A stretch of DNA of 64,000 nt, taken from Candidatus Latescibacterota bacterium. Lineage in GTDB: Bacteria; Latescibacterota; UBA2968; UBA8231. The notes under the pieces are model-generated. The model was not told the origin of the DNA. It worked only from the letters and a program-made list of their open reading frames with translations, and searched no databases. The position numbers and the translations under genes were made by a program. This document shows positions 1-41,895 of this stretch, one piece after another; within the stretch, counting starts at the first letter, position 1, and every line of letters begins with the position of its first letter. Where the stretch lies: NCBI GenBank assembly GCA_965200315.1, contig OZ241362.1:992001-1056000 (forward strand). The letters are read 5' to 3'.

Positions 1-140
1 ACATGCTGCGCCGGGCCGAGGAGCAGGGGCGGTTTCAAGCCTATATAGAAACCCTGCGCCAGCAATACGCCGATCAGATCCAAGTGGACCAACAGCAATT
101 AGCTGCGGCCCTGCCCGACGATTTCCTCACCGCCTTTTGA
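1..140 (+). CDS. 3' end of a PpiC/PrsA-like peptidyl-prolyl isomerase (partial, starts before the window); paralog of 34070-35812
   Basis: The frame from nt 3 reads MLRRAEEQGRFQAYIETLRQQYADQIQVDQQQLAAALPDDFLTAF*. This matches the C-terminus of the 580-aa PPIase (..REQLFEELINDLLDKYKERIAVSDSALAAALPDTFL). Confidence 0.7.
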   Translation, partial: MLRRAEEQGRFQAYIETLRQQYADQIQVDQQQLAAALPDDFLTAF

Positions 141-166
141 ACGGTCGCACAACTTGGAGAAACTCC

Positions 167-3100
167 ATGAACCGCAAACACTACAGCCGTTGGAGCCGGG
201 TTTGGGCCTTAGCTTTTGGGTGTTTGGCCCTCCAGCAAGTCAGTGCCCAAGTGCCCTTAGGCCACCATCTACAAGGCGACCGCATCATCGTCGACAAGGC
301 TTCCTATTGGCGACACTGGACTGGGCCCTCGCACGTAGTCGATGTGCATCCAGACGGGACGGTCAAGCCCCATTTTTTCCGCCACGTGTACAACATCATC
401 GCCGAAGATCGCGCGGCATTTGCCAAACCCGTGGACCAACCGGGCATCCGCAAGGCAGACCGGGCGATTATGAACCTCCAGCGCGCCCCGACTGTGGAAG
501 CAGACGGCAGCTTTACCCTCGGTAAAGCCGAGCAACTGATCAAATTTCTCGACCGAGATTTCAAACGCTTCCCCGGCAACGACAGCCAGCTCCCCATTAA
601 CGGCCGGCTCCTAACCATCGTCGACACCACCCTCAGCGGCGACGGCAAGACCGTGACCCTGAGCCTGCGCGACGAACGCACGGGGGTAGCATCGACGCGC
701 GAATTTGGCGCCAAAGACAAAATCGCATTCCCAGTGTACGACTACGTCCAGCGCGTCGGCGTCAGCCGGGTAGGTTCCAACGAAGCCCTAGCCCCCCACA
801 TTGTCGATGGCGACCACGACACCTTTTGGGAACCGGACTTAGCCGCCACGCCAGACAAGTGGTGGATCGAGATCGACTTGGGCCGCGCGCTCGTGGTCGA
901 GAAGATAGTGCTACACTTTGTCGATGAGACCTTGGGCGACCCCTTCCGCCAGTTCCGAGTCATGCTAGCCCCCCAGCAGAAGCTCATTCAAGCCCAAAGC
1001 CGCGTACTCCAGTTCAAGGTGGTCGGCCAAACCGAGGCTCCCAATACGGACCAGCGGACGATGGCGTTTTCTTCCGCGGATACGCCCGGCTTTTCCGAAG
1101 ACGACGACGGCCGCACCGAGTGGACCGGCCGCATGGCTCAGACGCTGCGCATCCTCATCGGCGACAGCAAGCTGGGGCGGGCACACCAAATCGACCAAGC
1201 GGCGTGGGATGCCCTGTCGGCCAGCGAACGGGGCGATGTGCTCTACTACATCCGCGACGACGTCGGTTTTGAGGAGCCGGTAGAGCAGGCTATTTACGAG
1301 AGCCTTCCCCAAGAACAGCAGGGCCGCAAAGAGTACTATATCCGCGAGCGGCCCCGGCTGGCCGAAGTCGAAGTCTGGGGCTGGGGCGATAACCTCTCTC
1401 CCCAGCTAATTGACGGGGGCGGTAGCGTTAGCTTTACCGGACCGGAAGTCCCGGCTGGGGGCTTTGACGGCGACTGGAACACCACCTTCCGCATGCCAGC
1501 GTGGTTCAGCAACAACCCCACCGCTGGCATTCTCACTGTCGATATTGGCGCCCGCGTCTGGCTCGACGCCATGCGCTTGGCCGTTCCCTTTATTCCCGGC
1601 TACATCACCGAGGTGGCCGACGGCAGCCGCGATCCCAACGGCCGGCTTCGGTGGCGACAGATCAGCCTACCCGACCGCATGGAAGGGGGATTCACGCGCG
1701 CCGCCGACCTCTTCGACCCGCCCCTAGATATCCGCTTTCTCAACCTGCGCCTGCCGGGCATCGCGCGGACTTCGGGCTTTTTCTACGACCTGACCGAAGT
1801 CCTGCTCTACACAGAGGGGTTTGTTAGCCAAGCCTCGCTGGTGTCCGATATCATCCGCCTGCCGGGACCGCGCAACTTCGGGGCCATCCGCTGGGATCCG
1901 CCGCCCGGCACGCAACCACCCGGCACGACCGCGGAAGTGCGGACGCGCACCGGCGATCTGCTGGTGCAGCAAATTCGCCATTTCGACGTCAACGGCAACG
2001 AGAAAACCAAAGAAGAATGGGACAAGCTAATCAGCAGTTGGAAGGGACCTATCGACACTACCTTTGCCCTCGGCAGCGGCTGGAGTCCTTGGAGCCAGCA
2101 GTACCTACAGCCGGGCGACCGGGTCCGTTCCCCCGGGCTGCGCAATTATATGCAGTTGCAGGTGCGTTTTACCAGCCAAGACCGCCAACAAGCCGCCTCC
2201 ATTCGCTCCATCGAGGTAGAGCTGGCCCCGCCAGTGGCCCGCGCCCTCACGGCCGAAGTATGGCCCACGCAGGCCGTCGTTGGCCGCTTGGACACGTTCG
2301 ACCTGTATCTGCGCCCGGTATTCATCGACGAACCAGCGGCCGACCGCACCCTAGGCTTTGACGAAATCCTGCTGCAAGCTCCTCCCGGGCTCGCGCTGCA
2401 CCTTCTGAGCCTCAGCACGGGGACCGAGGAAGAGCTAAGCCAAGGAAACCCCTTGCAGACGTTTAGCCTCGCCGCCGATGGCCACCTGACCGACGCTACT
2501 GGGGCCATCGCCCAAGTGCGGCGCAACCACGCCGACTCCATCTGGGTCCTGCTGCCCCAACTACACCAGACCCTACCGGCAGAGCAGGCGATCCAGACCT
2601 ACCACCGCATTACCCCCCAAGGGGCCGAAGTCATGGTTGGTGAGGACGGCGACCCGATCACCGAGGCCGCCTACGGTCTGCTCAACGAGGCCGAGCGCGG
2701 GGCTATCCTCTTCTTGCGGCAGACCGCCGACGGCTTGGCAGCGGTCTCTGGCCGCGCTGAGTACGATGACTTGCCCCCAACCGAACAAGGGCCGATTCGC
2801 TATTTCCGCAAACTGCGCGGCGGCGGGGCCCAATCGCCCTTTGACTCCTTGGGCGACTCCCTGACGCACACAACCTACCGAGCGTTACCAAGAGCCGAAC
2901 GCGGTGCCATCTTGGGTCAAGGCCCCCTAATCCACGTGCGCTTTGCCGCTGCCATCTTCCGCAACGGAACCACCCTTAAGCCTTTTGTCCGTCGCTCCGC
3001 CGCTGGCACCGACGGCAACTTGTGGCAGCAAGTAGAACCAGGCGACGCCACTGCGCTAACGAACAGCCGCCAACTGACGCTGAGCGTTCCCGTGGGAGGG

Positions 3101-3427
3101 CAAGTCCTCGGCGACCTGATCCTTTCCCCCAACCCCTTTACGCCCAATGGCGACGGGATCAACGACGAACTGACCGTCGAGTTTTCCATCTTCCAAGTGA
3201 CCCAAGCGCGCCAAGCGCGGCTACGCCTCTACTCACTCGACGGACGCTTGCTATGGGAAAACAGTACCCAAGTGCCAGGAGGCCCTCAGCAAATCCGCTG
3301 GAACGGCCGCGATGCGGCTGACCGCACCGTGCCCCCAGGACTCTATATATGCCGGATTGATTTTGGTGCCGATTCGGACCGGGCCACCGACACAGCCTTG
3401 GCCCGCATCGTGGCCGTAGTCTATTAG
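167..3427 (+). CDS. Large secreted protein with discoidin (F5/8-like) domains and a C-terminal FlgD-Ig/CHU_C-like domain
   Basis: ATG at 167 after GGAGA; signal peptide (..LALQQVSA|Q); DGDHDTFWEPD..WWIEIDLG discoidin signature; C-terminal SPNPFTPNGDGINDE..WNGRD..VPPGLY..VAVVY. Confidence 0.85.
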   Translation: MNRKHYSRWSRVWALAFGCLALQQVSAQVPLGHHLQGDRIIVDKASYWRHWTGPSHVVDVHPDGTVKPHFFRHVYNIIAEDRAAFAKPVDQPGIRKADRAIMNLQRAPTVEADGSFTLGKAEQLIKFLDRDFKRFPGNDSQLPINGRLLTIVDTTLSGDGKTVTLSLRDERTGVASTREFGAKDKIAFPVYDYVQRVGVSRVGSNEALAPHIVDGDHDTFWEPDLAATPDKWWIEIDLGRALVVEKIVLHFVDETLGDPFRQFRVMLAPQQKLIQAQSRVLQFKVVGQTEAPNTDQRTMAFSSADTPGFSEDDDGRTEWTGRMAQTLRILIGDSKLGRAHQIDQAAWDALSASERGDVLYYIRDDVGFEEPVEQAIYESLPQEQQGRKEYYIRERPRLAEVEVWGWGDNLSPQLIDGGGSVSFTGPEVPAGGFDGDWNTTFRMPAWFSNNPTAGILTVDIGARVWLDAMRLAVPFIPGYITEVADGSRDPNGRLRWRQISLPDRMEGGFTRAADLFDPPLDIRFLNLRLPGIARTSGFFYDLTEVLLYTEGFVSQASLVSDIIRLPGPRNFGAIRWDPPPGTQPPGTTAEVRTRTGDLLVQQIRHFDVNGNEKTKEEWDKLISSWKGPIDTTFALGSGWSPWSQQYLQPGDRVRSPGLRNYMQLQVRFTSQDRQQAASIRSIEVELAPPVARALTAEVWPTQAVVGRLDTFDLYLRPVFIDEPAADRTLGFDEILLQAPPGLALHLLSLSTGTEEELSQGNPLQTFSLAADGHLTDATGAIAQVRRNHADSIWVLLPQLHQTLPAEQAIQTYHRITPQGAEVMVGEDGDPITEAAYGLLNEAERGAILFLRQTADGLAAVSGRAEYDDLPPTEQGPIRYFRKLRGGGAQSPFDSLGDSLTHTTYRALPRAERGAILGQGPLIHVRFAAAIFRNGTTLKPFVRRSAAGTDGNLWQQVEPGDATALTNSRQLTLSVPVGGQVLGDLILSPNPFTPNGDGINDELTVEFSIFQVTQARQARLRLYSLDGRLLWENSTQVPGGPQQIRWNGRDAADRTVPPGLYICRIDFGADSDRATDTALARIVAVVY

Positions 3428-3454
3428 TAGTGTACACCAGCCAAAGGGAAAATT

Positions 3455-6115
3455 ATGGAAGCGATAAGGCTAAATACCGCGTCTGTTTTGGTGGTCTTGA
3501 GTTGTGTTTTAAGCCCAGCCTATAGCCAACCCGACTATGGCAAGCGGCTAGGCGTCCCCCGAGGGGGCGGCGAGACCAGCTATGCCCCTTATGGCCCGGG
3601 CGTCCTCTTCGACGCGCTGGACCCGACCATTAAAAAGTGGTACGTACCTCAGGAGCTGTACAACGAGTACCGCTGGCGCCAGTGGGAGTACAGCAACTAC
3701 GCCCGCAACCTGTACCAGCGCTACGTCGATATCCGGCTAGAGGGCGACTATTACTACGACCTATTTGGCAACGCCATCACCCGGGGCTGGCTCATCTTTA
3801 GCAACTCGCAGACCCAGCCGCGGCAATTTGGTAGCTCGCTGGTCAAGGCCACTCGCTTTAATAGCTGGTTTTCGGGCGTGGCCATTGCCTCGGACAGCAA
3901 GGGTCAGTACCACTACGCTCTGACGGTATCAAATCGCCTGCGCACCACGCTCACCCCTATGAGCTTTTCCAAACCCTTTTGGGACGGGGTCCAGTTCGAC
4001 ATAGCCACCGACAAATACCAAGGCACTGTCATCTACTCGCGCCTTAGTTCGCCCGGCGGGGCCTCGACCGACAACACCGAAGTCCTCACCACCAATCTAA
4101 CCACGCTAATGGGCGGTCGGGCCACTGCGCAGATCGGCGACTTCACAGAAATGGGTATTCACTTCGTCAACACCCACCAGTCCAATACCCTGCGCGACGG
4201 CTTTAAGGGCAACCCCATTGCTGGGGCCTTGACAGTTGACCAAAACCAAACCGTTTCCTTTATCGAACTGGTCCTGCGCGACGACTCGCCCGCAGACGGC
4301 AGCGGTGGAGCCGCCTTCTTCCCAGTGGGTTCGGACATCATCATTACCTATAACGACGGCACCGTTGACCGCGGCCGAGAAATCCGCTTTGAACCCGCCG
4401 TCCAAGGAGGGTTCGTCCAAGAGGGATTCATCTCGGCCGATGGCTCCGAAGAGATCCGCCTGCTCTACGACTTCGACACGCCCGCCTTCGTCAACCGGGC
4501 CTCGGGTCCCAAAGAAGAAATCGCCAAAATCGAATTCGAGCTGACCATTGGCAACGACTATCAGGTGTGGATGACGTCCAACAACCAGACCAATCGCAGC
4601 GGCGAACCTGTGCTGCTGCTGGTGGCGCAAGCCGAGGGCAATGTGCAGGACAACACCAACCTGCGCATCCTCAAATTCGAGTACGGCCTGCCCACGGCTA
4701 CTCAAATTATCGGGGCCACCCTAGAGCTGCGGGACGTGGCCGGATTCAACTTCTACGGAGAGTACGATATGAGCGTGGCCTACCGCAAATACCCCAGCGT
4801 GACGCGCACCAGCCACACCACTTCGGCGGGCGTGGCCGGAGAGCAGGTCGAGCCAGCCTGGATGATCAACCTGTCTAAGGTGGCCCATCCTTGGTTCTTT
4901 TTTGGCGAAGCGTACAGCATGGACCCGCTCTACAACACCCGCACCTTTGTCACCGGCTCGGCCGGCAATATCGACTACGAAAACGAGCGCTTCCACGTGG
5001 TGGAGTTGGTAGAAGACAACGACGACCAAGACCGCGCACCCGACCTAGTGCGCGCCGATTCGCAAGCCGGTGACCGCCGGGTCTTCCCCGGCTGGGACGA
5101 GAACTATGACTTCATCTCGGACTTCAACCAAAACGACAACCTAACCATCTCCAATGGCATCCCCGACTACGACGAAGCCTTCCTCAGACACCGCGTGGAC
5201 CGACCCGACTTCCTCTACGGGATCGACATGAACAATAACCTGTGGGTTGACCGCTTCGAAAACGACGAATCCCCAGACTACCCCTATCAGAAGGACCACC
5301 GGGGCTTCAACGTCTATATGGGATACCGGCTGACCCCGGACATCCGCCTTACCATCGGGCACCTGCGCGAGGAATTGATCTCGGCCGACAAGCGCAACCA
5401 CACGTCCTATGCCCTGTTCAGTCTAGACCGGGACAATCCCCAACAAGGGCGCTTCCGCTTTATGCAGATGGTCAAGCTGGCCCAAGACAATATCCCAGAC
5501 GACCTGCTCCAGTGGTTCCCCGAAAACACGCAGCGCGATGGCCAGTTGCAAAAAGTAGTAGATCCGCTTTTAGCCCAAGACACTTGGATTAATACCACTT
5601 GGATCGGACACAACTACAACCGAGGGGGCTTAGAGGCGCATAACTATCTCAACTTGGAACTTTTTCACCAGCGCGACAGCGCGGCTCTGCGCGAGACGGA
5701 CTCCTTTTTTGGCGTCATCAACAAACTCAGCTACCGCTACGATCTGGGGACCATCCAACTTGAGCCGCGCTGGAAAAGCGAATATCGCCGCCAAACCGTG
5801 GGGCTGTTTTCCGCCGACGAGGAGACGGTGCTGACCGAGATAGTAGGGTTTCTCTTTGGATTTCCCATCCTCAACAACACCCGCATCCAAACCGGAATTG
5901 AGTACTCTTTCGCCAACGATATGAAGCGCGACAACAACGATTTTACCGGGATCGCCGGGGCCTTGCAGCTATCCAATGTGAGTTCCTACTTGGGCTACGA
6001 GGTATCTGCCCAAGTGGGTCTCAAAGCAGATTGGCGCGATTTCAAAAGCATCGAACGCGAATCGGAAATCCTGACCCAAGGCTTTATCACCCTGTATGCT
6101 GGCCTTGGTAAGTAA
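3455..6115 (+). CDS. Conserved exported/outer-membrane protein of unknown family (886 aa); paralog of 39200-41869
   Basis: Signal peptide; N-terminal block GPGVLFDALDPxxxKWYVPQELYxEYRWRQWEYSNYAR almost identical to the paralog; Asp/Asn-rich segment; C-terminal alternating beta-strands ending FITLYAGLGK. Confidence 0.8.
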   Translation: MEAIRLNTASVLVVLSCVLSPAYSQPDYGKRLGVPRGGGETSYAPYGPGVLFDALDPTIKKWYVPQELYNEYRWRQWEYSNYARNLYQRYVDIRLEGDYYYDLFGNAITRGWLIFSNSQTQPRQFGSSLVKATRFNSWFSGVAIASDSKGQYHYALTVSNRLRTTLTPMSFSKPFWDGVQFDIATDKYQGTVIYSRLSSPGGASTDNTEVLTTNLTTLMGGRATAQIGDFTEMGIHFVNTHQSNTLRDGFKGNPIAGALTVDQNQTVSFIELVLRDDSPADGSGGAAFFPVGSDIIITYNDGTVDRGREIRFEPAVQGGFVQEGFISADGSEEIRLLYDFDTPAFVNRASGPKEEIAKIEFELTIGNDYQVWMTSNNQTNRSGEPVLLLVAQAEGNVQDNTNLRILKFEYGLPTATQIIGATLELRDVAGFNFYGEYDMSVAYRKYPSVTRTSHTTSAGVAGEQVEPAWMINLSKVAHPWFFFGEAYSMDPLYNTRTFVTGSAGNIDYENERFHVVELVEDNDDQDRAPDLVRADSQAGDRRVFPGWDENYDFISDFNQNDNLTISNGIPDYDEAFLRHRVDRPDFLYGIDMNNNLWVDRFENDESPDYPYQKDHRGFNVYMGYRLTPDIRLTIGHLREELISADKRNHTSYALFSLDRDNPQQGRFRFMQMVKLAQDNIPDDLLQWFPENTQRDGQLQKVVDPLLAQDTWINTTWIGHNYNRGGLEAHNYLNLELFHQRDSAALRETDSFFGVINKLSYRYDLGTIQLEPRWKSEYRRQTVGLFSADEETVLTEIVGFLFGFPILNNTRIQTGIEYSFANDMKRDNNDFTGIAGALQLSNVSSYLGYEVSAQVGLKADWRDFKSIERESEILTQGFITLYAGLGK

Positions 6116-8342
6116 GGCGTTTGCGCTGCACTGGCCCAAGCTGGCGGCCTTAGCCGTCTTGGCCCTAGGCTTGCGCTTGGTTTACCTGTTCCAAGCCGCC
6201 GACAGTCCTTTTTTCGACACGCCTATTGTCGATGCCAGAAGCTATACCGAATACGCCCGCGAACTGGCGACCGGCTCTTGGGCTGGGCGTCCGCTGCCGT
6301 TCTGGCAGGCCCCTTTGTACCCCTATTTCCTCGCTGTTCTCTTTTCTCTTTTTGGCGAAAACTACTATCTGCCGCGTCTGCTCCAAGCCCTAGCCGGCAC
6401 GGCTACCTGCCTGATCGTCTTCAAGCTAGGCCGCGAGGTCTTCTCGCCGACGGTGGGCTGGATAGCGGCCCTAGGAGCGGCCCTGTACGGCCCTTTCCTC
6501 TACTTTGAGGGCGAACTTTTGCCCACGGCTTGGGCTGTACTTTTCGACGCGGTGCTGCTGTTGGTCTTGTTGTGGGGTCAGCGACGAGGCGGCGCACTTG
6601 TCGCGCTTGTCGCCGGGCTTGTCCTAGGGCTGGGCACCTTGGCCGTGCCGAACGTGTTGCTCTTTGCGCCAATAGCGGCTTGGTGGGTGTATCGCTGGCC
6701 CGCTGCGACACCGCATCGCCGCGCCCTCCATGTAGTGATCTTTGCGGCCGGCCTGCTGCTGCTGGTCGGCTCGGTGACGTTGCGCAACCGCATCGTCGGC
6801 GGTGAGTGGGTGCTCATCTCCTTCAACTCGGGAGTCAACTTCTACCTCGGCAACAACCCGGACCACGACCGCACCGTAGCGGCGCGGCCCGGAGCGGGGT
6901 GGAGCGACGTGATTGACTTGCCGCAACGCGAGGCCGGCATCACCCAGCCGGGGGCTGGCTCGAACTACCTTTTGGGCAAAGCTTGGGAGTATATACACAC
7001 CGAGCCGGGGGACTATTTGGCCCTGCTCTTACACAAGGGCTATCTGTTTTGGCACGGGGCTGAGATCCCCCGCAATACCGATCCGTACTTCGCCGCTGAG
7101 TATTCGCCGCTGTTGCGCCTTTTGCTGTGGAAATACGGCCTCGCATTCCCCTTTGGCCTCGTTTCGGCCCTCTCCCTACTCGGGGTGGCCTATGTCCTGC
7201 TCAAACCGGAACGCCGCACCCCGGCAGCTTATCTCGTCTTGCTCTTTGCGGGAATCTATATGCTGTCGGTAGTGTTGTTTTTCGTCACGGGCCGCTATCG
7301 CTTGCCGGCCGTGCCCTGTCTCTTGCTGCTGGCCGCCTATGGTGCTTGTACCTTGGCTAGTTTGCGCCATAGAGCTTTGTATCTGTCGGCTGGTGCCCTC
7401 ATCCTGCTGCTATTGGTGACCAACGCCGGGACCGCGACGAACAGCCCGCAGGTGGCCGCTTTTCACCACTACTCGCTGGCGGCTGTCTATGAGAATAAAG
7501 GCATGAAGACCAACGCCTTGCAGCACTACCGCCGCGCCGTTGAACTAGACCCATCTCACCGCCGCGCCCTGCTGGGCCTCGTCCAGATGTACGGAGCGAC
7601 CCAGCGCTACGACGATGCCGCCCACACCTGGCGGCAATTCCTCGACCACTATCCCGACCAAGACGACGTCCGCCTCCAGCTAGCCGACTTTCTGCGGCTG
7701 CGGGGCCAGCCTCAAGAATCGGTGGCCGAGTACCAAAAGCTCCTAGCGCGGCAACCCGATCAGGCCCATCTGTACCTCCGCCTCGGTCGCGCCAAAGCCG
7801 CAGCCGGCCGGCTGGTGCAAGCCGAAGCGGCCTACCTTCGCGCACTCGAACTAGGCTCCCAGTCGGCTCACTACCTGCTAGGCCAGCTATACGAAGAGCA
7901 AGGCCAGCCCGAGCGCGCCGAACAAGCCTATCAGCAGCTACTAGCCCAGCAGCCCGATCATCTCGCCGGGCTGTGCCATTTAGCCGATCTGCTGTTAAAG
8001 CGGAGGGAAGAGGAAACAGCCAAAGACCATTTGCGCGCGGCCCTGGCGCTCGATCCCAACAACGCGCACGCCTTGCGCAGCATGGGCACCTTAGAGGCCA
8101 ACCAAGATCAGTACCGCCAAGCTCTCCAGCGCTTTGAACGCATCTTGCAACACCATCCCCGCGATCTCCAAGCTCGTCGCTCCCTATCCCATCTCCTGCT
8201 CAAAACGGGTCAGCGCGAACGCGCCGATGCCGAGTACGCGCACTACCAGCGCCTAAAGCGGCAACACCTCATGCAGCAACAGACGCTGGAAAAAACCAAG
8301 GAACTAGCCGATCAACTGCGGCACATGTTCAAAGTGCCCTAG
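6096..8342 (+). CDS. GT-C membrane glycosyltransferase (ArnT/PMT_2-like) with C-terminal TPR repeats
   Basis: Multi-TM N-terminal half with DARSY, FWQAPLYPYFLA and RYRLP motifs, followed by about 7 TPR-like repeats; overlaps the upstream stop (translational coupling). Confidence 0.85.
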   Translation: MLALVSKAFALHWPKLAALAVLALGLRLVYLFQAADSPFFDTPIVDARSYTEYARELATGSWAGRPLPFWQAPLYPYFLAVLFSLFGENYYLPRLLQALAGTATCLIVFKLGREVFSPTVGWIAALGAALYGPFLYFEGELLPTAWAVLFDAVLLLVLLWGQRRGGALVALVAGLVLGLGTLAVPNVLLFAPIAAWWVYRWPAATPHRRALHVVIFAAGLLLLVGSVTLRNRIVGGEWVLISFNSGVNFYLGNNPDHDRTVAARPGAGWSDVIDLPQREAGITQPGAGSNYLLGKAWEYIHTEPGDYLALLLHKGYLFWHGAEIPRNTDPYFAAEYSPLLRLLLWKYGLAFPFGLVSALSLLGVAYVLLKPERRTPAAYLVLLFAGIYMLSVVLFFVTGRYRLPAVPCLLLLAAYGACTLASLRHRALYLSAGALILLLLVTNAGTATNSPQVAAFHHYSLAAVYENKGMKTNALQHYRRAVELDPSHRRALLGLVQMYGATQRYDDAAHTWRQFLDHYPDQDDVRLQLADFLRLRGQPQESVAEYQKLLARQPDQAHLYLRLGRAKAAAGRLVQAEAAYLRALELGSQSAHYLLGQLYEEQGQPERAEQAYQQLLAQQPDHLAGLCHLADLLLKRREEETAKDHLRAALALDPNNAHALRSMGTLEANQDQYRQALQRFERILQHHPRDLQARRSLSHLLLKTGQRERADAEYAHYQRLKRQHLMQQQTLEKTKELADQLRHMFKVP

Positions 8343-8360: not shown

Positions 8361-9362
8361 TCACATCTTTCGCCCACGCCCAGCGAGGCGATACTGCTGA
8401 TTTTTTGCGGTGGGCGATTCGGGGCGCGTCATTTCCACTAGTCCTGCGGACAGTGCCGGGCGCAGATAGTTTTTGCGGAATGTGGGCCGATGCGACAACC
8501 CCAGTGCCGCCATGAGTTCGGCGGCCGTTTTTGGACCGGTCTGCAAGATCGCAAGCAGCCGCGCTACTTGGTCGCTTATTTGGTCGCTTACTTGGTCGCT
8601 TACTTGGTCGCTTACTGTGGGTGTCTGAAGTGCATCCAGAATGATCTTCAGCATGAACGCAATGAACGGTGTGCTATCGCCCTCGGCCGAACTCTGCCGG
8701 ATGGCTTGGTAGTAGTCGCCTTGTCGGTCATGCACCAGACTTTCTACCGGGATGTGGGCGAATAGGGGTTTCCAGCGGGTCAGAATCAAGGTCTGCCAGA
8801 GCCGTCCCATGCGTCCGTTGCCGTCCTCAAAGGGGTGAATGAACTCGAACTCGTAGTGGAAGACCGAGCTGGCAAGCAGCGGGTGCTCATCGGTGCTGCC
8901 CAGCCATGCCAGCAAATTGGCCATGAGTTGCGGTACGCGCCTAGAGGACGGGCCGACGTGATGGACTGCGCCGCCGCCCATCACGCCAATGCCGGTGCGG
9001 CGATAGTGTCCGGGTGAGTCCAACAATCCGCTCATCAGGACTTCGTGAGCACTCAGCAGGTCGGCTTCGCTAGCCGGGCTCCACTGCTGGTATTGATCGT
9101 AGGCTTTGATGGCGTTGCGGGCTTCCTGAATGTCCCTGAGCGGCGCAACAACGGGCTTGCCATCGAGAATGGTGGAAACTTGCTCCTCGCTGAGAATATT
9201 GCCTTCAATGGCCAGCGATCCGCGCACGGTGAGGATGCGATTGATTCGCCGCAGGCGCAAATCCTGCACAATGCCTGTCGCCCGACCAATCGCCTCCCCG
9301 ATTTCTTCGATGCGAAAAAGGAGCTCCGGCGCGATTGTGTATGGCGGTTTTTCAATCTTCAT
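8361..9362 (-). CDS. Fic family protein (AMPylase) with C-terminal HTH
   Basis: Canonical Fic motif HPFEDGNGRMGR; C-terminal RPTFRKNYLRPAL..QQYRL. Confidence 0.93.
   Translation of the reverse strand: MKIEKPPYTIAPELLFRIEEIGEAIGRATGIVQDLRLRRINRILTVRGSLAIEGNILSEEQVSTILDGKPVVAPLRDIQEARNAIKAYDQYQQWSPASEADLLSAHEVLMSGLLDSPGHYRRTGIGVMGGGAVHHVGPSSRRVPQLMANLLAWLGSTDEHPLLASSVFHYEFEFIHPFEDGNGRMGRLWQTLILTRWKPLFAHIPVESLVHDRQGDYYQAIRQSSAEGDSTPFIAFMLKIILDALQTPTVSDQVSDQVSDQISDQVARLLAILQTGPKTAAELMAALGLSHRPTFRKNYLRPALSAGLVEMTRPESPTAKNQQYRLAGRGRKM
8565..8616. repeat. 12-bp tandem repeat (TACTTGGTCGCT x ~4.3) encoding an SDQV linker in Fic
   Basis: Units at 8565, 8577 (one mismatch), 8589 and 8601, plus a partial unit; protein reads SDQVSDQVSDQISDQV. 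Confidence 0.95.
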
Positions 9363-10324: not shown

Positions 10325-12619
10325 ATGGAAAATGCACCTTCGCTCTCGCGCGGCCAAGTGCATCGCGCCCTCCGTTCCTTTGTCGTCGCCAGCGGCTTGT
10401 GGGGTGCTTGGGGGCAAGCCTGTGGGCTGGGGACAGCGGCCTTTACTGGCTTCGCCCTGTACTTAGGTGCCGACGGTGCCTTTATCGCCCTCTTCACCTC
10501 GGCCGCGTATTTCTTAGCTCTGACGCAATTGCTCGCGCCCTTGCTGAGCGCCCGCGTCCGCGACAAGAAGCGCTTTGTCGTCTTTGGCGGCTACGTGGAA
10601 ATCGCCTTCCGCGGGCTGCCGCTGATCATCCCCCTCTTCGTCCCGCAACCATACCGACTCCCGGCCCTAGTGGCGATGGTCTGCCTCAGCATGTTCAGCG
10701 GCTATGCGATTTCGCCCTTTTACAGCACTTGGATCGCCAACGCCGTGCCGGAAAATATCCGTGCGCGTTTTGCCAGCCGCCAGACCATCGTCAGCACCCT
10801 AGTGGCTATGGTTGTCGGTTTTGCGATCGGCCAATTCCTCGACCTTTTCCCCGGCGGAGGCGGCTTTGTCTGGGTCTTTGCCGCCGGGACGCTCTTTGGA
10901 TTCTTGGGCTACTTAAACCTCCGCCGCGCCCCCTTTCCCCAACAGAGGGCCGCCACTGACGAACAAAGCACGCGCTTGCGCGACCTCTTGCAGCCCTTCC
11001 ACGACGCCAACTTCCGCCGCGCCGCGCTCTTTTTTGGCCTGTGGACCTTTGGCATTGGGCTGGCCGGGCCGCTCTACAGCGTCTTCATGCTCGACCGCCT
11101 GCAGATATCCTATACCGAAGTCTCGATTTTCAACGCTCTGTTCATGCTGACCAGCATCGCTGGCTACCGGCTCTGGGCTGGCCTCATTGACCGCTTCGGT
11201 GCCAGACCCGTCCTGCAAATCCTGATGACCCCGGCCGCGTTCCTGCCTCTTATCTGGACCTTTAATCAGTCAGGGGCCTACCACTTGGTCCCCGTAGCTT
11301 TGATCATCAGCGGCATTCTATTCTCCGGGATCGGAGTGGGCATCAATCCCCTGCTCTATGGTCTGTTGCCCCAAGGCGAAAAACGCACGATGTACCTAGC
11401 CACTTGGTCGGTGACAGTCAACCTAATGGGCGCACTCGGCCCTTTGTTCGGCGGCCTGCTCGTCGCCCAACTAGAGGGCTTGCGCTTTGACGTTTTCGGC
11501 GTGCCCATGGGCGATTTACAAGTCATCTTTGCCCTCAGTGCCTTGGTCCGGCTAGCGCCTTTATTCATCCTCCGCACCGTCAAGGACGCGCGGAGCGCAA
11601 CCTCGCGCAGCCTGCTCTCGCGGATGCTGCGCGGCAATGTCCTCAGCTACGCCTACAACGCTACCATTTTCAGCCTAGCCACGGCCGAGGAAACCCGCGC
11701 CCGCGCCGCCGAGGCTCTAGGCCGTTCGGGCAATCCTCTCGCCATCGAGCAATTGGTCCAAGCGCTGGCCGACGCCAGCCCCCGGGTGCGGCGCGCCGCG
11801 GCCCGCGCCTTGGGCGAGAGCCGTTCGGCAAGCGCGGCCGAACCCCTAGTGCGAGAGCTGCTCGACGGAGCCTCAGACATCCGCAGCGAAGCCGCCGAGG
11901 CGCTGGGTCGCCTCGGATATTCTACGAGCATAGATCCGCTGGTCGATGCACTGAGCGACGCCGATCCCCGGGTGCGTATCAGCGCCATCCGCGGCCTAGC
12001 TAGCATCCGTGGGGACGAAGTCCACGAACTCTTATTCTGGCACTTTGGCAGCGATTTCGACCCTCTGACATTCCCGACGCTGGTCGATGTCCTCGGCGAG
12101 CGCCAAGACCGCCGCATCGTCCGACCCGCGCTAGGCCATCTGCCCGACTTTCCCTCCCCGGCCGTGCGCTTGCAGCTACTCAACGGGGTCTGCCGCTCAC
12201 TAGGCGCTGGCGACCAATTCTATCGCTTGCTCTCGCGCGAAGATACCGACCGCGTCGCCGCTATTACCCGCCTGCTGCGCCGGGCAACAGACTCCTTGGG
12301 CAAGGCCCGCTGCATCGACACCGAAGACCGCGCACAATTAAAAACCTTGTGCCGGGAGGTGGTCGTCGCTTATGAAGAGGAAAAGGCCGAGGCACTAGTC
12401 GAGGCCATGCGGCAGGTCGTGCATACCGTGCGCGACGGACTCTCTGCCACGAGGGACCAAGCCTACGATGTGCTCTCGGTGTACGTGGTCCTCATCGCCA
12501 TCGGCCGCTTTATCAACAGCCCGGTGCGGCAAGAGTCGCCCGTTGCCCAAGAGATTTTTCTCACCGTATGCCTAGGGCGCTTAGCTGCTTTGATCCGCGA
12601 GATCGACGATAGCATTTGA
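10325..12619 (+). CDS. MFS transporter fused to C-terminal HEAT/PBS-lyase repeats
   Basis: About 12 TM helices with GLIDRFGARP MFS motif; repeats LADASPRVRRAAARALG and LSDADPRVRISAIRGL. Confidence 0.87.
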   Translation: MENAPSLSRGQVHRALRSFVVASGLWGAWGQACGLGTAAFTGFALYLGADGAFIALFTSAAYFLALTQLLAPLLSARVRDKKRFVVFGGYVEIAFRGLPLIIPLFVPQPYRLPALVAMVCLSMFSGYAISPFYSTWIANAVPENIRARFASRQTIVSTLVAMVVGFAIGQFLDLFPGGGGFVWVFAAGTLFGFLGYLNLRRAPFPQQRAATDEQSTRLRDLLQPFHDANFRRAALFFGLWTFGIGLAGPLYSVFMLDRLQISYTEVSIFNALFMLTSIAGYRLWAGLIDRFGARPVLQILMTPAAFLPLIWTFNQSGAYHLVPVALIISGILFSGIGVGINPLLYGLLPQGEKRTMYLATWSVTVNLMGALGPLFGGLLVAQLEGLRFDVFGVPMGDLQVIFALSALVRLAPLFILRTVKDARSATSRSLLSRMLRGNVLSYAYNATIFSLATAEETRARAAEALGRSGNPLAIEQLVQALADASPRVRRAAARALGESRSASAAEPLVRELLDGASDIRSEAAEALGRLGYSTSIDPLVDALSDADPRVRISAIRGLASIRGDEVHELLFWHFGSDFDPLTFPTLVDVLGERQDRRIVRPALGHLPDFPSPAVRLQLLNGVCRSLGAGDQFYRLLSREDTDRVAAITRLLRRATDSLGKARCIDTEDRAQLKTLCREVVVAYEEEKAEALVEAMRQVVHTVRDGLSATRDQAYDVLSVYVVLIAIGRFINSPVRQESPVAQEIFLTVCLGRLAALIREIDDSI

Positions 12620-15046: not shown

Positions 15047-15943
15047 TTGAGCGCGATAACCATATTTCGCGGCGGGGCGATCGGCGACTTTGTCCTCACC
15101 CTGCCCGCCATCAATGCCGTGCGCCGGGCTTTTCCCTCCGCCGATTTGCGCCTCATCGGCCGCCCAGCACCCCTTGCGCTCGGCCCGGCGGCGTCTGTCC
15201 TCGACAGCGAAAACCCGCGCTTGATTGCCCTGCACCGCGATGGGCCGCTGCCCCCGGCCACGCGCCAGCTCTTCGCCGCGACGCAGCGCGTACTAGCCTA
15301 TGCGGTGGATGCCCAACAACACCTCGGCCCGCAACTGCGCCGAGCCGTCGCCGGCCCCGTGCTGCTGTGGGACCCGAGGCCCCCAGCCGATTTCCGCGGC
15401 CACATCGTCGATCACTTGCTAAGCCCCTTGCGGCAATGGGGCCTGTCTGTCTGCAACCGCACCCCACACATTGAACTACGGCCCGGCGACTACGGCTATG
15501 TAGATGCGCTCACCGCGCCCGAAGTCGTCATCCACCTAGGCAGCGGCTCGCCGGCCAAGTGTTGGCCCGCGGCGAATTTCCACGCCCTCGCCAGCGCGCT
15601 ACAAAAAAGAGGTTGGCATACCGCGCTCCTGTGCGGCCCAGTCGAACGCGAACGCCAGCTCACAGTCGGCGACCTGCCCGCGCTCCACCCCCCAGACCTG
15701 CGCTCCCTCGCCGGCCTGCTCGCCAAAGCCGCGCTCTTCATCGGCAACGATTCCGGCCCCGGGCACATAGCCGCGGCCGTCGGCACCCCGACCCTGACGC
15801 TATTTGGCCCCACCGATCCCCGGCAGTGGGCACCGCGCGGCAAGCGCAGCCGAGTCCTGCAAGCACCGGCCGCCGACATCGCTGCAATCCCCACTACAGC
15901 CGCAATAGATGCTGCGCTAGCCCTTCTCCAGAGCACGCGATGA
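15047..15943 (+). CDS. GT9 glycosyltransferase (ADP-heptose:LPS heptosyltransferase-like)
   Basis: GAIGDFVL, HLGSGSPAKCW, FIGNDSGPGHIAAAVGTPTLTLFGPTDP. Confidence 0.92.
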   Translation: MSAITIFRGGAIGDFVLTLPAINAVRRAFPSADLRLIGRPAPLALGPAASVLDSENPRLIALHRDGPLPPATRQLFAATQRVLAYAVDAQQHLGPQLRRAVAGPVLLWDPRPPADFRGHIVDHLLSPLRQWGLSVCNRTPHIELRPGDYGYVDALTAPEVVIHLGSGSPAKCWPAANFHALASALQKRGWHTALLCGPVERERQLTVGDLPALHPPDLRSLAGLLAKAALFIGNDSGPGHIAAAVGTPTLTLFGPTDPRQWAPRGKRSRVLQAPAADIAAIPTTAAIDAALALLQSTR

Positions 15944-16560
15944 CTTCCTACGCCGACCAACGCCGAGCTATGGTGCGCGAGCAACTCAGCCAGCGCGGCA
16001 TTGGCGACTCGCGCGTACTCGCGGCATTTGACCGCGTCCCAAGACATTGCTACGTCCCGGAGGCCCTGCGCGCCCACGCGTATGCCGATCACCCGCTGGC
16101 CATCGGCGCGGACCAAACCATCTCTCAGCCGTACGTAGTGGCCTACATGCTCTCGGCACTTGGCTTAAAGGGTGAAGAAAGAGTCTTGGAAATTGGCACC
16201 GGCTCTGGGTACCAGACCGCCCTGCTCGCCGAACTGGCCGGCCAAGTCTATAGCATTGAATTCTTTTCCGACCTCGCCGCACAGGCCCGGCGCGTGCTCG
16301 CCGACACCGGCTATGGCCACGTCGCCCTCCGCGTCGGCGACGGCCGCATGGGCTGGTCTGAAGCCGCTCCTTTTGACGCCATCGTATGCTCGGCCGCACC
16401 CGCTACCATCCCACCCGCTCTAACCGAACAACTAACGCCTAACGGGCGCTTCATTCTCCCACTAGGCACCCGACGCCAACACTTGGTCTTGCTAGAGAGC
16501 AGCGCGACCGGCCTCAGCCAGCGCAAACTCCTACCCGTGCGCTTCGTGCCGATGCAGTAG
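15940..16560 (+). CDS. pcm: Protein-L-isoaspartate O-methyltransferase
   Basis: ATGA overlap with the GT9 stop; QTISQPYVVAYM, VLEIGTGSGYQTA, APFDAI, VRFVPM. Confidence 0.95.
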   Translation: MTSYADQRRAMVREQLSQRGIGDSRVLAAFDRVPRHCYVPEALRAHAYADHPLAIGADQTISQPYVVAYMLSALGLKGEERVLEIGTGSGYQTALLAELAGQVYSIEFFSDLAAQARRVLADTGYGHVALRVGDGRMGWSEAAPFDAIVCSAAPATIPPALTEQLTPNGRFILPLGTRRQHLVLLESSATGLSQRKLLPVRFVPMQ

Positions 16561-16635
16561 CAGACCACGGAGGGATTGCCATTGTAAGTCATGCACAGTG
16601 TAGATAAGTCAGAACGTCAGTGGAGGAATGCAACT

Positions 16636-16771
16636 ATGGCCAGCACAAAAACCAAACTTACATACGAGACCTATCTAAGGACGCCCGATGACAAACGCTA
16701 CGAGCTGTTGGACGGGGAGCTGATTATGGAGCCAGCACCGCTTACGGCTCATCAGTACGTCCAACAATCCA
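16636..16771 (+). pseudogene. Uma2 (DUF820) endonuclease, N-terminal fragment
   Basis: GGAGG RBS; MASTKTKLTYETYLRTPDDKRYELLDGELIMEPAPLTAHQ; similarity ends where the convergent pyrD stop begins. Confidence 0.8.
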
Positions 16772-21119: not shown

Positions 21120-21129
21120 GAGCTGTCTC

Positions 21130-31335: not shown

Positions 31336-33987
31336 TCAATACGCCACCCCAACTAGGCGGGCAGCCGAGTTGCCATCCTCGGCGTCGTCATCTACCTCGA
31401 TACGGGCGAGGTAAAGGCCCGGGGACACTAAGGTTCCCTCTTCGTCCCGGCCGTCCCACACAAGGCTATACAGCCCGTTCGCCATGTTGCGCCGCTCAGC
31501 AAGACGCCTCACTTGCCTGCCTGCCAAGTCGTAAAAAGCCACCGTTACTTGCCGGGCCACATTGACTTTGAGCACGGCAAACGAAAAGACAGCCGCGTCG
31601 TTGATGCCGTCGCCATTCGGGGTAAAAGTGGCGGGATCTACCTCGATTGTCCCGATCTGCCCGCGGTGGGCGGTCGTCAAGACTGTCAACCCCTCACCAA
31701 CGGCCAATTCGTCTCCTACCGGGTCCGCTGGGTCCACCCGCTGCCAGTTGTCCGCTTGAGTCGAGCGCCCAACTTCGGCGGCAAAAGTGGCACCGCTCAG
31801 GAAAACGCGTGACGAAAAAGAGACCCGCACAATATCCGCACTGCCGCGCCGCAGTATTCTTGGCAAGCCGATTTGCAGCGTGTCACTTGCCACCTTGGTC
31901 AAGTCCAGTTCCTCCCCCGCCTCATTCTCAAAACGGCCTTTTTCCACCTCGGCAAATATCTCCTCGTTTCCGGCGGCAAATTCGCTTTCGTCTCCCAAAC
32001 TCACTTGGCGCAGTTCGATATTCGCCCGCGAAGGCGCGATGAGCCGGATGCGGTCGAATCCTCGGTCTCGAGCAGCGAAGGAGGAGCCGATGAAGAGGTC
32101 GAAATCTGCGAGTCCGCCGAGGGGGACACCCCGCTTGGGCTCTATTTCCCCAGCGATGTGCTCTACCAGTGGCGCTGTAAAATGGATTTGAATCGACTCT
32201 AGGCTGGCGGCCACTGCCGCGTCTTCACTGAGCAGTCTCGTCTGGATCATCATATAGCGCCGGGGATTGGGGGAGCGTATGACTTCGCCTGGTTTGACGT
32301 AGACTTGACTCCAGTTGCTCCAGCCCGGTCCCGGCAGGAACTCGGTAAGGATCTCCCCCCTGTAGAAAGACGGTTGCTTATCGTATTCTTCTTTGTTGGC
32401 TACTTCCGTGCCGTCTTTTTTGAAATAGCGGTTTATTTCGCGCAGATCGTCCCCCGTGCGGGTGCGGATTTCCACCGCTGTGCCCGAGGGAGTGTCAGCT
32501 TCCCATTCAATGGTCGTCAGTGTCTTGGAACTCCCCAGATCAATGAGGTCGGAAGTCATCTCGAGGATCGGTAAGTGCCCGTTGGCGAAGACTTGGATTT
32601 CGGTCACCGTGCTCAGTATCCGGTGCCCTTCATGAGCCCTAGTGCGGCGGGCAATATCTAGGTTGCGGAATTCCAGAAAGCGTATTGGGCGCGGCTCAAA
32701 GTGATCCTCAAATAGTCGCGTATTCTGGTTTAGCTGCCGCGTCTCACCACTCAATTCCTCCCAGATTAAACTGCCATCGGGTGCCAGCGAGCCGTCCGAA
32801 CCGCGCAATATATAACCAATTAGGTTTCTTCCTCCGACGCGGGTAATGATGCGCACGGCATGGACCAAAAAGTGAGAGCCCAGATTCACGTTCAACAGAC
32901 CCCACTCGGCGGTCTCTCCAGTGGGAAAGTAAACCATGCCCTGCCACTCGGTACGCACGTTGCCGTCAACGGCAAGTTCGGGCGAAGAATTGGGATTGAC
33001 GTCGTGTAAATTACCGCCGCGCTCTACGATTCCCAAGGCGATGTTCTCGCCTATAGTCCATACCTCCACCTCGGCGAGTTGAGGTCGTTCGCGGCGGTAA
33101 TAGCGCACCCCGCCCTGCTGCTCAAGTGGCAACTGATCGTAGCGCTCGGCCGTTACTAGACGCTCTTCGCCGGCGATTTTCCAGACGTATTCCACAGTGC
33201 CTTGGTTTTCTGCTGTCAACGCCTGATACTCCTCGGCAGAGAGCTGTTGCGCCCGCTCGCCACGGGTGGCCGTGACCGCGACGCGCAGGTACTGCACAAT
33301 GCGGCCGGTCCACTCTTCTGTATGGGTGCCCAGTGGTGCGAGGTCGAACTCAAAGACTCGCTGGTCGCGATTGGGCTGGGTAGTGCCGCCAACCAATGTA
33401 TAGTCCAAGGCGCCGCTGCGATCCGCCGTGCCAAAGGGGTTTTGCCCCCCTGCCGCATGTACTCTGAATTGCAGAAACGGGTCCCCTTCTTCGGCAAAGC
33501 GTACAACGACCTTGGTGGCTGACACCAGACGGCCAAGATCAATCTCCAACACCCAGTCCCGCAGGGGATCGGCCGGATCTGGCTCCCAAGCTGTAGTCAG
33601 ATCGGCATCCACGGCCCGCTCCGCTAGCTGCGGATTTGAACCAGCCCTTTTGATCCCGCCGCGCGTCAGCAGCGTGTTATTTTCATCTTGGAACGAATTG
33701 GCGTACTGATCTCGCAAGCTGCCATCAATGGGATAGCTGAAGTCGGCCGCATTCAATATGGCGTTGTGCGGTACTTGTATAAATCTGGACTGCACCGAGC
33801 CAGACGGCGTTATGGCCACCATATCCCGCGGAAAATCCCAAGCCTGCCAATGCGCCTGGGTCCGCACCTCCACCCGATTCTCGCCCAGACTGTAACCCTT
33901 CGATTGGGCCCATACCCCGTTTAGAGCCATAAGAAGAAAAAGGACTACAGAACAGAGTGCCTTGGACAAAAGACCCGATTTCCTCAT
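31336..33987 (-). CDS. Large secreted discoidin-domain protein with a C-terminal FlgD-Ig/CHU_C-like domain; paralog of 167-3427
   Basis: GGAG RBS, MRKS start, signal peptide; DADLTTAWEPD..WVLEIDLGR; RTRTGD..GWSNWS..SPNPRRY; FTPNGDGIND..WDGRD..PGLY..VGVAY. Confidence 0.87.
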   Translation of the reverse strand: MRKSGLLSKALCSVVLFLLMALNGVWAQSKGYSLGENRVEVRTQAHWQAWDFPRDMVAITPSGSVQSRFIQVPHNAILNAADFSYPIDGSLRDQYANSFQDENNTLLTRGGIKRAGSNPQLAERAVDADLTTAWEPDPADPLRDWVLEIDLGRLVSATKVVVRFAEEGDPFLQFRVHAAGGQNPFGTADRSGALDYTLVGGTTQPNRDQRVFEFDLAPLGTHTEEWTGRIVQYLRVAVTATRGERAQQLSAEEYQALTAENQGTVEYVWKIAGEERLVTAERYDQLPLEQQGGVRYYRRERPQLAEVEVWTIGENIALGIVERGGNLHDVNPNSSPELAVDGNVRTEWQGMVYFPTGETAEWGLLNVNLGSHFLVHAVRIITRVGGRNLIGYILRGSDGSLAPDGSLIWEELSGETRQLNQNTRLFEDHFEPRPIRFLEFRNLDIARRTRAHEGHRILSTVTEIQVFANGHLPILEMTSDLIDLGSSKTLTTIEWEADTPSGTAVEIRTRTGDDLREINRYFKKDGTEVANKEEYDKQPSFYRGEILTEFLPGPGWSNWSQVYVKPGEVIRSPNPRRYMMIQTRLLSEDAAVAASLESIQIHFTAPLVEHIAGEIEPKRGVPLGGLADFDLFIGSSFAARDRGFDRIRLIAPSRANIELRQVSLGDESEFAAGNEEIFAEVEKGRFENEAGEELDLTKVASDTLQIGLPRILRRGSADIVRVSFSSRVFLSGATFAAEVGRSTQADNWQRVDPADPVGDELAVGEGLTVLTTAHRGQIGTIEVDPATFTPNGDGINDAAVFSFAVLKVNVARQVTVAFYDLAGRQVRRLAERRNMANGLYSLVWDGRDEEGTLVSPGLYLARIEVDDDAEDGNSAARLVGVAY

Positions 33988-34069
33988 AGTCGTCTCCGAA
34001 ATCATCGAGTACTGCACAGGTAAACGGCGTTCCATAACCTATTGTCCCAAGTAAAGACGTACCTACGTG

Positions 34070-35812: not shown

Positions 35813-35821
35813 GTCTTCTAT

Positions 35822-37672: not shown

Positions 37673-37709
37673 CCAGTGCCTCCTTTGCTCGGTCGCCAAC
37701 TAAGAGAAC

Positions 37710-37741
37710 GGCGGGATTTACAGTCGCCCGTAAATCCCGCC
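37710..37741. terminator. Perfect 12-bp intra-operon hairpin (terminator or mRNA stabiliser)
   Basis: GGCGGGATTTAC-8nt-GTAAATCCCGCC between the 290-aa gene and the next gene; no strong U-tract on the coding strand. Confidence 0.6.
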
Positions 37742-37790
37742 TGAAACTATCCTCCAACTTCTACGGCACAGGCAGTCGAGTCGGCCTTAT

Positions 37791-38663: not shown

Positions 38664-38782
38664 TGCAATACCTCTTTTCAGTTAGTAAGTGGATCTTTGT
38701 GTCTTTTGCTGCCCCAAACGGGGCTGAAACGACGACTGTTTCTCTCTCCTCCTTTCAGCTACCAACAGATCGCCATGTTATA

Positions 38783-39152: not shown

Positions 39153-39199
39153 TATAACTGTAATATCAACCTAATTCAACGTTGTGAAGGTCAAACCCA

Positions 39200-41869: not shown

Positions 41870-41895
41870 AATCCCCCTCCTCGCTTGGCTAGCAT

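Follow-up and report, generated by a model that had tools for sequence, protein, structure and literature searches.

The stretch analysed here, hereafter the window, comprises 64,000 nucleotides of contig OZ241362.1 (positions 992,001 to 1,056,000 of the forward strand) from a Candidatus Latescibacterota bacterium and has a G+C content of 57-62%. It contains two diverged copies of one gene module, one at 1-8342 on the forward strand (copy A) and the other at 31336-43914 on the reverse strand (copy B). We denote the component families by letters: s, m1 and m2, P for a peptidyl-prolyl isomerase (PPIase), L for a large surface protein, B for a predicted outer-membrane β-barrel and G for a predicted glycosyltransferase; L, m1 and m2 are referred to together as cargo. 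Within the window, copy A runs P-L-B-G and copy B runs m1-B-s-m2-P-L (Table 1). Judged from sequence, the genome carries at least two ancient copies, this region being one of them, of a conserved module that we assign to the cell envelope of Candidatus Latescibacterota.

Table 1. Genes of the two module copies; positions are those of the window.
Copy and family	Length	Position	Strand	Features
A, P	C-terminal 45 codons	3..139	+	frame 3, ends ...QLAAALPDDFLTAF*; gene cut by window edge
A, L	1086 aa	167..3427	+	GGAGA 8 nt 5' of ATG
A, B	886 aa	3455..6115	+	signal peptide; outer-membrane β-barrel by model
A, G	748 aa	6096..8342	+	PMT_2 and TPR; 20-nt overlap with the barrel gene
B, m1	672 aa	41896..43914	-	FlgD_ig/CHU_C C-terminal domain, ends ...SVVY
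B, B	889 aa	39200..41869	-	aligns end to end with the copy A barrel
B, s	290 aa	37791..38663	-	small secreted CBM9-like; tail TWGQIKSSF
B, m2	625 aa	35822..37699	-	FlgD_ig/CHU_C C-terminal domain, ends ...SLVY
B, P	580 aa	34070..35812	-	two parvulin (rotamase) domains; N-terminal lipobox LAAC
B, L	883 aa (899 aa if the upstream ATG at 34035 is used)	31336..33987	-	FlgD_ig 29.3 bits

A preliminary description of this DNA had taken positions 1..6115 for a rearranged paralogous copy of the module at copy B, and what it saw there is confirmed. The tail of a PPIase recognised at the left edge matches the C-terminus of the 580-aa PPIase of copy B at 15 of 32 residues (E 5e-7); a complete 551-aa PPIase occupies the same position in loci L001, L002, L052 and L075 of the comparison set described below, which identifies the fragment, by synteny, as the end of such a gene. 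The two L proteins are indeed colinear paralogs (253/800 identical, 32%, E 4e-102), copy A L carrying an extra segment at about residues 77-193, and so are the two barrels, which are identical at 430 of 897 positions along their entire length (48%, E 0). The order PPIase then large cargo is kept in both copies and the barrel gene is found elsewhere, after L in copy A and after m1 in copy B. The duplication is also old, as had been supposed, because for each copy there are separate orthologs in other genomes, at 95-98% amino-acid identity, and the two window barrels fall into different, deeply branching clades of the tree of barrels (FastTree, 102 rows). As for the extent of the module, an end at 6115 cuts it short, since the conserved member G continues the module to 8342.

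The window truncates copy A. Four loci (L052, L001, L075 and L002) are colinear with window 1-8342 at about 92% nucleotide identity, and in these copy-A orthologs the 6.5 kb upstream of the position of the window's first base hold m2, m1 and the whole PPIase gene, preceded by a divergent gene of the s type, which encodes a protein ending ...SWGRIKARFK. Both the two smaller cargo genes and the (S/T)WGxIK gene that the preliminary description proposed to look for upstream are thus present. Because these orthologs carry the missing genes, the full copy A is predicted to read s-m2-m1-P-L-B-G. Orthologs of copy B (L065, L068, L069, L070, L072 and L074) have the order m1-B-s-m2-P-L.

Relatives of the barrel are numerous. 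A word-indexed protein search returned 907 of them, with "hypothetical protein" as the sole name wherever one is given, and the organisms named were metagenome-assembled genomes of Candidatus Latescibacteria; searching 1.84 billion representative proteins with a profile gave 964 clusters at E≤1e-3, including 322 at E≤1e-30. Scanning a species-representative genome collection with the barrel matched at least 813 stretches, at least 710 of which were confirmed by tblastn. The best 80 of these confirmed matches correspond to 76 loci from 41 assemblies, and among the best 80 kept, one chromosome holds at least six loci and another at least five. The expectation of a multi-copy family of loci is therefore well borne out. 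By label, 60 of the 76 loci belong to Latescibacterota, 13 to Gemmatimonadota, one to Bryobacterales and one to Woeseia, and one is unlabelled. We considered a wider host range on the strength of the 15 Gemmatimonadota, Bryobacterales and Woeseia labels and rejected it: the barrels concerned sit inside the same barrel clades, several of them beside near-identical Latescibacterota sequences, and for this reason we read the labels as apparent binning or naming issues.

The components of these loci are tightly linked. All open reading frames (ORFs) of the loci were compared with nine window proteins; ORF starts were set at the first start codon after a stop, and some lengths are over-long. Among the 53 loci with full 10-kb flanks, B occurs in 53, L in 52, m1 in 52, P in 50, m2 in 49, G in 43 and s in 36, and 15 of the 53 have a second barrel (B'). 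The arrangement seen most often is P L B G m1 m2 (B') s. Across all loci, 84 of 99 barrel genes lie at most 400 nt downstream of a same-strand cargo gene (48 behind L, 21 behind m2 and 15 behind m1), and G is the next gene downstream of the barrel in 55 of the 99.

We compared pairwise distances between barrels with those between each other component in loci holding both proteins. The correlation is high throughout: r = 0.954 for L (68 loci), 0.907 for P (61 loci), 0.951 for m1 (62 loci), 0.967 for m2 (56 loci) and 0.900 for G (55 loci). When paralogous loci were shuffled within genomes, which preserves species relatedness, the mean r was 0.23-0.32 and none of 500 shuffles reached the observed value. 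Because within-genome shuffling lowers the correlation to this extent, the loci duplicate and descend as units. The matched components postulated earlier are thus real in the sense that they are inherited en bloc (r = 0.90-0.97); co-evolution is not demonstrated, as congruent distances amount to co-inheritance and adaptive co-evolution does not follow from them alone. There are not just two copies, the components are not incongruent and the homologs are not unlinked, so none of the observations that would have spoken against such a family was made. Second barrels form a clade of their own in the barrel tree. The deepest branch of the tree as a whole consists of two very divergent barrel relatives of 938 and 836 aa, encoded in tandem on the reverse strand beside a normal module (L056:17332-20148 and 20145-22655) and scoring 118-188 bits against the window barrels.

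Common to the three cargo families are a signal peptide and, at the C-terminus, a domain with matches to CHU_C and/or FlgD_ig of Pfam. CHU_C (cutoff 27) scores 33.5 bits in copy A L, 32.8 in m1 and 28.8 in m2, and stays below the cutoff in copy B L with 23.3; FlgD_ig scores 39.1 bits in m1 and 29.2 in m2. Sequence comparison shows the three to be mutual paralogs: m1 and m2 are identical at 177 of 524 positions (34%, E 1e-78), and identity between L and m1 is 36% over the C-terminal domain (E 2e-24) and 27% over the core (E 1e-16). Their C-termini are strikingly uniform. The last residue is Tyr in 206 of 214 cargo proteins (68/71 for L, 71/73 for m1 and 67/70 for m2), mostly within the motif [AGS]V[AV]Y, and 114 of the 214 contain an FTPNGDGxND-type motif, which is typical of type-B C-terminal domains (CTDs) in type IX secretion systems (T9SS). 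A protein of about 200 aa that consists almost solely of a FlgD_ig/Por_Secre_tail domain (L017:3903-4511) is encoded near modules in 10 loci; a protein of this type scores 28.8 bits with the type-A CTD model (cutoff 27).

The remainder of the large cargo has a lectin-like appearance. In copy A, L has two discoidin-like domains (F5_F8_type_C_2, 29.0 bits, cutoff 27.8) and Ig/macroglobulin-like β-sandwiches, and its C-terminal CHU_C/FlgD-Ig-like domain ends ...AVVY. We modelled L with AlphaFold2 (20-sequence alignment, pLDDT 80.1). In Foldseek comparisons the tandem discoidin domains matched neuropilin b1b2 (target TM-score 0.44-0.46), the C domains of factors V and VIII and fucolectin, and matches with low TM-scores included the β-sandwich arrays of alpha-2-macroglobulin and complement. 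No catalytic fold aligned over the length of the L model in this search.

Two further components are constant accessories. The 580-aa P matches Rotamase_2 (60.7 bits), Rotamase (54.5 bits) and Rotamase_3 (42.3 bits), all above cutoff, with Rotamase_2 and Rotamase each matching two stretches; no NCBIfam equivalog reaches its cutoff for this protein. The lipobox lies within the N-terminal sequence ...WSLAACSPG and has similar counterparts in the orthologs. G combines a PMT_2 membrane domain of the GT-C type (27.7-29.0 bits, cutoff 26.1) with a long C-terminal TPR domain; PMT_2 is detected in 11 of 12 G-family members, above the cutoff in seven of the 12, and a search of the PDB with the G profile returned TPR proteins only. 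In eukaryotes, TPR-bearing GT-C enzymes modify β-sandwich domains.

The small protein s is recognisable as CBM9-like mainly through its relatives. The window protein has no CBM9_1 match in Pfam at E up to 10, and a PDB search with the s profile gave nothing usable. CBM9_1 (PF06452) is found in four of 16 aligned homologs (best E 1.2e-4), PF06452 is carried by 13%, 37% and 94% of the members of the nearest Atlas clusters, and many of the 120 listed s relatives have a precomputed PF06452 match, one bearing the source name CBM9 cellulose/xylan-binding protein. A constant feature of the family is a His (H24) directly after the predicted AxA signal-peptidase site, present in all 16 aligned proteins and, as a post-signal His, in 106 of the 110 relatives whose N-terminus could be used. 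Of the four exceptions, three come from truncated gene calls and one reads ...NQA|H. Because this invariant His directly follows the predicted cleavage site, the mature protein probably starts with it. Copper sites of the histidine-brace type, such as those of lytic polysaccharide monooxygenases and CopC, are characterised by an N-terminal His; near-invariant H103 and H116 and several invariant Asp residues lie further downstream in s.

The C-terminus of s is equally characteristic, the (S/T)WGxIK tail being present in 105 of the 110 relatives. Conversely, 53 of the 56 proteins with WGxIK C-termini in the window and the 76 loci are products of s-type genes (for example, L006:19527-20420 and L004:20227-21174), and the other three resemble a further s-type gene. 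We also considered the tail as a general sorting tag of the organism, which these counts do not establish. One s-type relative, P0388, has a T9SS type-A-like CTD (precomputed PF18962 and PF13860) in place of the tail. Since this CTD stands where the others carry WGxIK, the exchange suggests that tail and CTD are interchangeable sorting or anchoring signals.

Neither window barrel belongs to a Pfam or NCBIfam family, for Pfam even at E up to 10. The AlphaFold2 model of the copy A barrel (22 sequences, pLDDT 60.9, pTM 0.57) predicts about 26 long strands (residues 111-244, 404-489 and 615-883) and a confident inserted β domain at about 269-392/395. Two parts are left unmodelled, the conserved N-terminal segment (26-110, unmodelled at about 20-100, with KWYVPQELY and WEYSNYAR) and an Asp/Asn-rich loop (496-612). 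Among 43 barrels of less than 85% identity, the share of columns conserved to at least 95% is 39% in the Asp/Asn-rich loop, 25% in the inserted β domain, 24% in the N-terminal segment and 13% in the last 13 strands. On this evidence, the parts most likely to carry function are among those that the model cannot place. Searches of PDB sequences were of little help: the barrel profile gave nothing usable, a broader profile of 69 sequences gave one chance match (E 0.026) and no SlpA, and one distant relative used as query gave chance matches only. The Atlas search returned the barrel's own unnamed clusters alone, the nearest named cluster, DUF6029 (score 0.88), being a lead only. We found no longer fused forms of the barrel, which is weak evidence. 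When the barrel (residues 26-886) was predicted in complex with the large cargo's C-terminal domain (952-1086), two runs made without controls scored 0.00, and we draw nothing from them.

In layout, the nearest described logic appears to be that of T9SS type-B cargo with its PorP/SprF partner, although by sequence the module fails membership of the partner family and, judged by the curated model TIGR04131, of the type-B CTD. In Flavobacterium SprB-SprF and Porphyromonas PG1035-PorP, a cargo with a type-B CTD has a cognate PorP/SprF-like protein that is encoded directly downstream and is needed both to secrete the cargo and to anchor it at the surface (PMC12618676, PMC9143113). The module shows the same arrangement in that its cargo bears a signal peptide for Sec together with a C-terminal β domain that is conserved (with CHU_C above the cutoff in three of the four window cargos), 84 of the 99 barrel genes directly follow a cargo gene, and each cargo set has its own matched barrel. 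It differs in the barrel itself, which has about 26 strands and about 890 aa and no PorP_SprF model match, in having three paralogous cargos per barrel, in the addition of a PPIase, a GT-C/TPR glycosyltransferase and a CBM9-like protein to the unit, and in its phylum, Latescibacterota. Genes of the T9SS core (SprA/Sov, GldK/L/M/N) are absent from the 64-kb window, and the literature searched yielded no paper linking Latescibacteria or Latescibacter to type IX secretion.

We therefore put forward, as a tentative reading that we consider possible but short of probable, that each locus builds one outer-membrane surface complex, in which three lectin-like proteins with T9SS-like C-terminal domains are joined to a partner barrel and matured by the PPIase and the glycosyltransferase. 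Since the constant accessory genes encode a PPIase and a GT-C enzyme, maturation of exported proteins is favoured over glycan breakdown. In such a scheme L, m1 and m2 would be exported by Sec and kept foldable in the periplasm by the lipoprotein PPIase, and the GT-C/TPR enzyme would O-glycosylate their β-sandwich domains from a lipid-linked donor. The C-terminal domains would then pair the cargo with the cognate barrel, which might either receive and anchor it at the surface, as PorP/SprF does with T9SS type-B cargo, or let it through itself. The finished complex would display carbohydrate-binding domains, and the diverged copies in one genome could provide different binding specificities.

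Several observations speak against this reading of a cargo-plus-barrel surface complex. G is absent from copy B and its orthologs, and 15 of the 99 barrels do not directly follow a cargo gene. With TIGR04131, the curated NCBIfam model for type-B CTDs, the module cargo scores below the cutoff (16.9, 20.1 and 17.7 bits against 35), and the window's m2 gives no match. Pfam and NCBIfam do not place the barrel in the PorP/SprF family, and with about 890 aa it also differs in size from the known PorP/SprF proteins. Confidence in the barrel model is moderate, and its most conserved parts are those left unplaced. Carbohydrate binding by the module proteins rests on domain type, and binding, localisation and glycosylation are all inferred from sequence.

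The preliminary description had also called the loci similar to polysaccharide utilization loci (PULs). Like the PULs of Bacteroidota, the module exists in many diverged copies in which a barrel is co-inherited with surface proteins that have carbohydrate-binding-type domains. Its content, on the other hand, does not bear the comparison out. Plug and TonB_dep_Rec are absent from both barrels (Pfam at E up to 10, and NCBIfam), and no SusD family member is found among the nine whole module proteins and the PPIase tail or among the flanking ORFs. Of these ORFs, 244 within 3 kb of the clusters, 121 were scanned: five large neighbour clusters were set aside and every homolog cluster was represented by a single ORF. 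The 121 include one glycoside hydrolase (GH127), one sulfatase, one β-helix protein, one DUF4185 protein, three GDSL esterases and two TonB receptors, the rest being housekeeping or mobile-element genes, and no conserved PUL-type regulators were seen among the 121. Thus the module, unlike a PUL, lacks a SusC-type TonB-dependent transporter, SusD and a conserved regulator and is accompanied by almost no carbohydrate-active enzymes, its constant extras being a foldase and a glycosyltransferase.

The loci might still serve the capture and uptake of nutrients by a TonB-independent route, in which the discoidin and CBM9-like domains bind an extracellular polymer, the barrel imports it and a DUF6785/DUF6784 protein acts as inner-membrane permease, with different substrates for different copies. 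The multiplicity, divergence and matching of the loci suit this idea, as do the carbohydrate-binding-type domains in L and s and the prediction that the phylum lives on algal polymers (PMC4454575). The putative permease is a multi-pass membrane protein of 650 aa with DUF6785 and DUF6784 (E 1e-125) and at least 11 hydrophobic segments; it occurs in 20 of the 76 loci, usually encoded directly upstream of P (for example, L003:4296-6251, L004:13130-15118 and 15532-17514). However, its presence in 20 of 76 loci is limited and its role as permease is assigned by the proposal; we found no published work on DUF6785 in the literature searched. Moreover, a barrel that has neither the Plug/TonB-dependent receptor domain nor a SusD partner, and flanks with a single glycoside hydrolase and no sign of PUL-type regulators, argue against uptake, which also leaves the constant PPIase and GT-C enzyme unexplained. 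We therefore regard it as rather unlikely as an account of the module, while noting that it is compatible with the surface-complex reading, one addressing assembly and the other use.

The structural comparison of the barrel opens two other directions. Foldseek searches of the PDB with the barrel model returned solely large outer-membrane barrels, with query TM-scores of at most 0.27; given such scores, the result indicates fold class and nothing more. The top three matches are all to the Deinococcus SlpA / S-layer deinoxanthin-binding complex (E 2e-9 to 5e-9, TM-scores 0.18-0.19), and the others include MtrB, the FimD/PapC ushers and LptD. The SlpA matches raise the idea of a structural envelope layer, in which SlpA-like barrels would hold a glycosylated, S-layer-like lattice of L, m1 and m2 and the copies would be alternative coats. 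SlpA_C (PF21620) is also the sole Pfam family touched by full-length barrel relatives, in 12 of 67 distant ones and at a constant region of the model, a haloarchaeal S-layer protein is among the Foldseek matches of the L model (rank 21), and a dedicated glycosyltransferase would suit S-layer glycoproteins, for which Tannerella TfsA/TfsB provide a glycosylated precedent. Yet the 12 SlpA_C scores are all below the cutoff (16.5-30.2 bits against 35), none of 14 close barrel relatives and neither window barrel has the domain, the TM-scores to SlpA are very low, and profile searches of PDB sequences yield no SlpA. The SlpA barrel has 30 strands compared with about 26 here, Pfam finds no SLH domain in the module proteins, and it would be unusual for one genome to specify five or six different coats. 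We consider an envelope layer unlikely.

The usher matches (ranks 5-10, 13, 15, 22 and 25; E 3e-8 to 1e-5) point in the second direction, an autonomous chaperone/usher-like pathway. The barrel would be the translocon, its inserted domain the plug and its N-terminal segment the docking site, with the PPIase as chaperone and L, m1 and m2 as subunits recognised by their C-terminal strand. FimD/PapC, MtrCAB and LptDE, large outer-membrane barrels with a partner protein housed inside, do share with the module a similar barrel size (about 24-26 strands) and an inserted domain (Foldseek E 9e-9 to 1e-5), and next to the module barrel gene are those for its presumed partners and for a dedicated folding factor of the periplasm. 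The β domain inserted between barrel strands, the conserved N-terminal extension, the strictly conserved cargo C-terminus and the single chaperone gene per locus would all find a place in such a pathway. Against this, TM-scores to FimD/PapC do not exceed 0.26 (0.27 for the whole group), there is no sequence-family match, and neither an usher nor a PapD-like Pfam family is found, the chaperone being a parvulin PPIase. The cargo also consists of large multi-domain, lectin-like proteins and not of pilins, cytochromes or LptE, and a position of the inserted domain in the barrel lumen would be an assumption of the model. To the usher-like pathway as such we give very little credence, the least among the readings discussed.

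A bolder version, only marginally more credible to us and still very unlikely, would make each locus a complete, T9SS-independent pathway of secretion and assembly. It would comprise an usher-like translocon of about 26 strands with a plug-like insert and an N-terminal docking segment, a lipoprotein PPIase as chaperone, glycosylation in transit by the GT-C/TPR enzyme, three lectin-like subunits recognised by their ...V-A-Y strand and the CBM9-like protein with its N-terminal His. If this is true, Latescibacterota, and perhaps their relatives, would have a secretion system of a new type, one that assembles a polymer-capturing and possibly oxidising surface machine in which the N-terminal His of s could be a metal (copper) site.

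To our knowledge, Latescibacterota are widespread and uncultured, and their cell envelope is known from gene predictions only. Because there are several copies per genome and at least 964 barrel clusters at 50% identity, the module is likely a major feature of the latescibacterotal cell surface. No published description of it was found in the literature searched; the consulted part of the 2015 Latescibacteria genome paper mentions porins, TonB receptors and a type VI secretion system, but not the module. Should the barrel partner with proteins bearing T9SS-like CTDs, the logic of cognate cargo plus barrel would extend to a different barrel family and a different phylum; should it work alone, it would represent a new export route. 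In either case, the paralogous copies are a natural test set for the evolution of cargo-barrel specificity, and the invariant N-terminal His of s is a concrete and cheap biochemical lead.

The surroundings of the modules show some variation between close relatives. Just past copy A, the window has a Fic/DOC-family gene with a Fic-like C-terminal domain (8361-9362, reverse strand). This segment is exactly missing in the 92%-identical L052 and L075 and present in L001, and the gene is therefore a presence/absence polymorphism among close relatives. In one genome only, three transposase-related ORFs (DDE_Tnp_1, DDE_3 and a helix-turn-helix ORF; L002:16163-18715) lie directly downstream of the copy-A ortholog. 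More stable are two unusual HEAT-repeat fusions, one with a major facilitator superfamily transporter (10325-12619, forward strand) and the other with a PhyH dioxygenase (28822-30303, reverse strand), both of which keep their positions beside the two modules in orthologous loci (L052 for one; L069, L072 and L074 for the other). Further inside the window, an 895-aa protein that joins numerous TPR repeats to a region resembling YfiO/BamD and a TonB_C domain at the C-terminus is encoded between the carB and dihydroorotate dehydrogenase genes (18477-21164, reverse strand), and a defence gene for a GmrSD-type restriction endonuclease (GmrSD_N and GmrSD_C) is located at 60698-62404 on the reverse strand.

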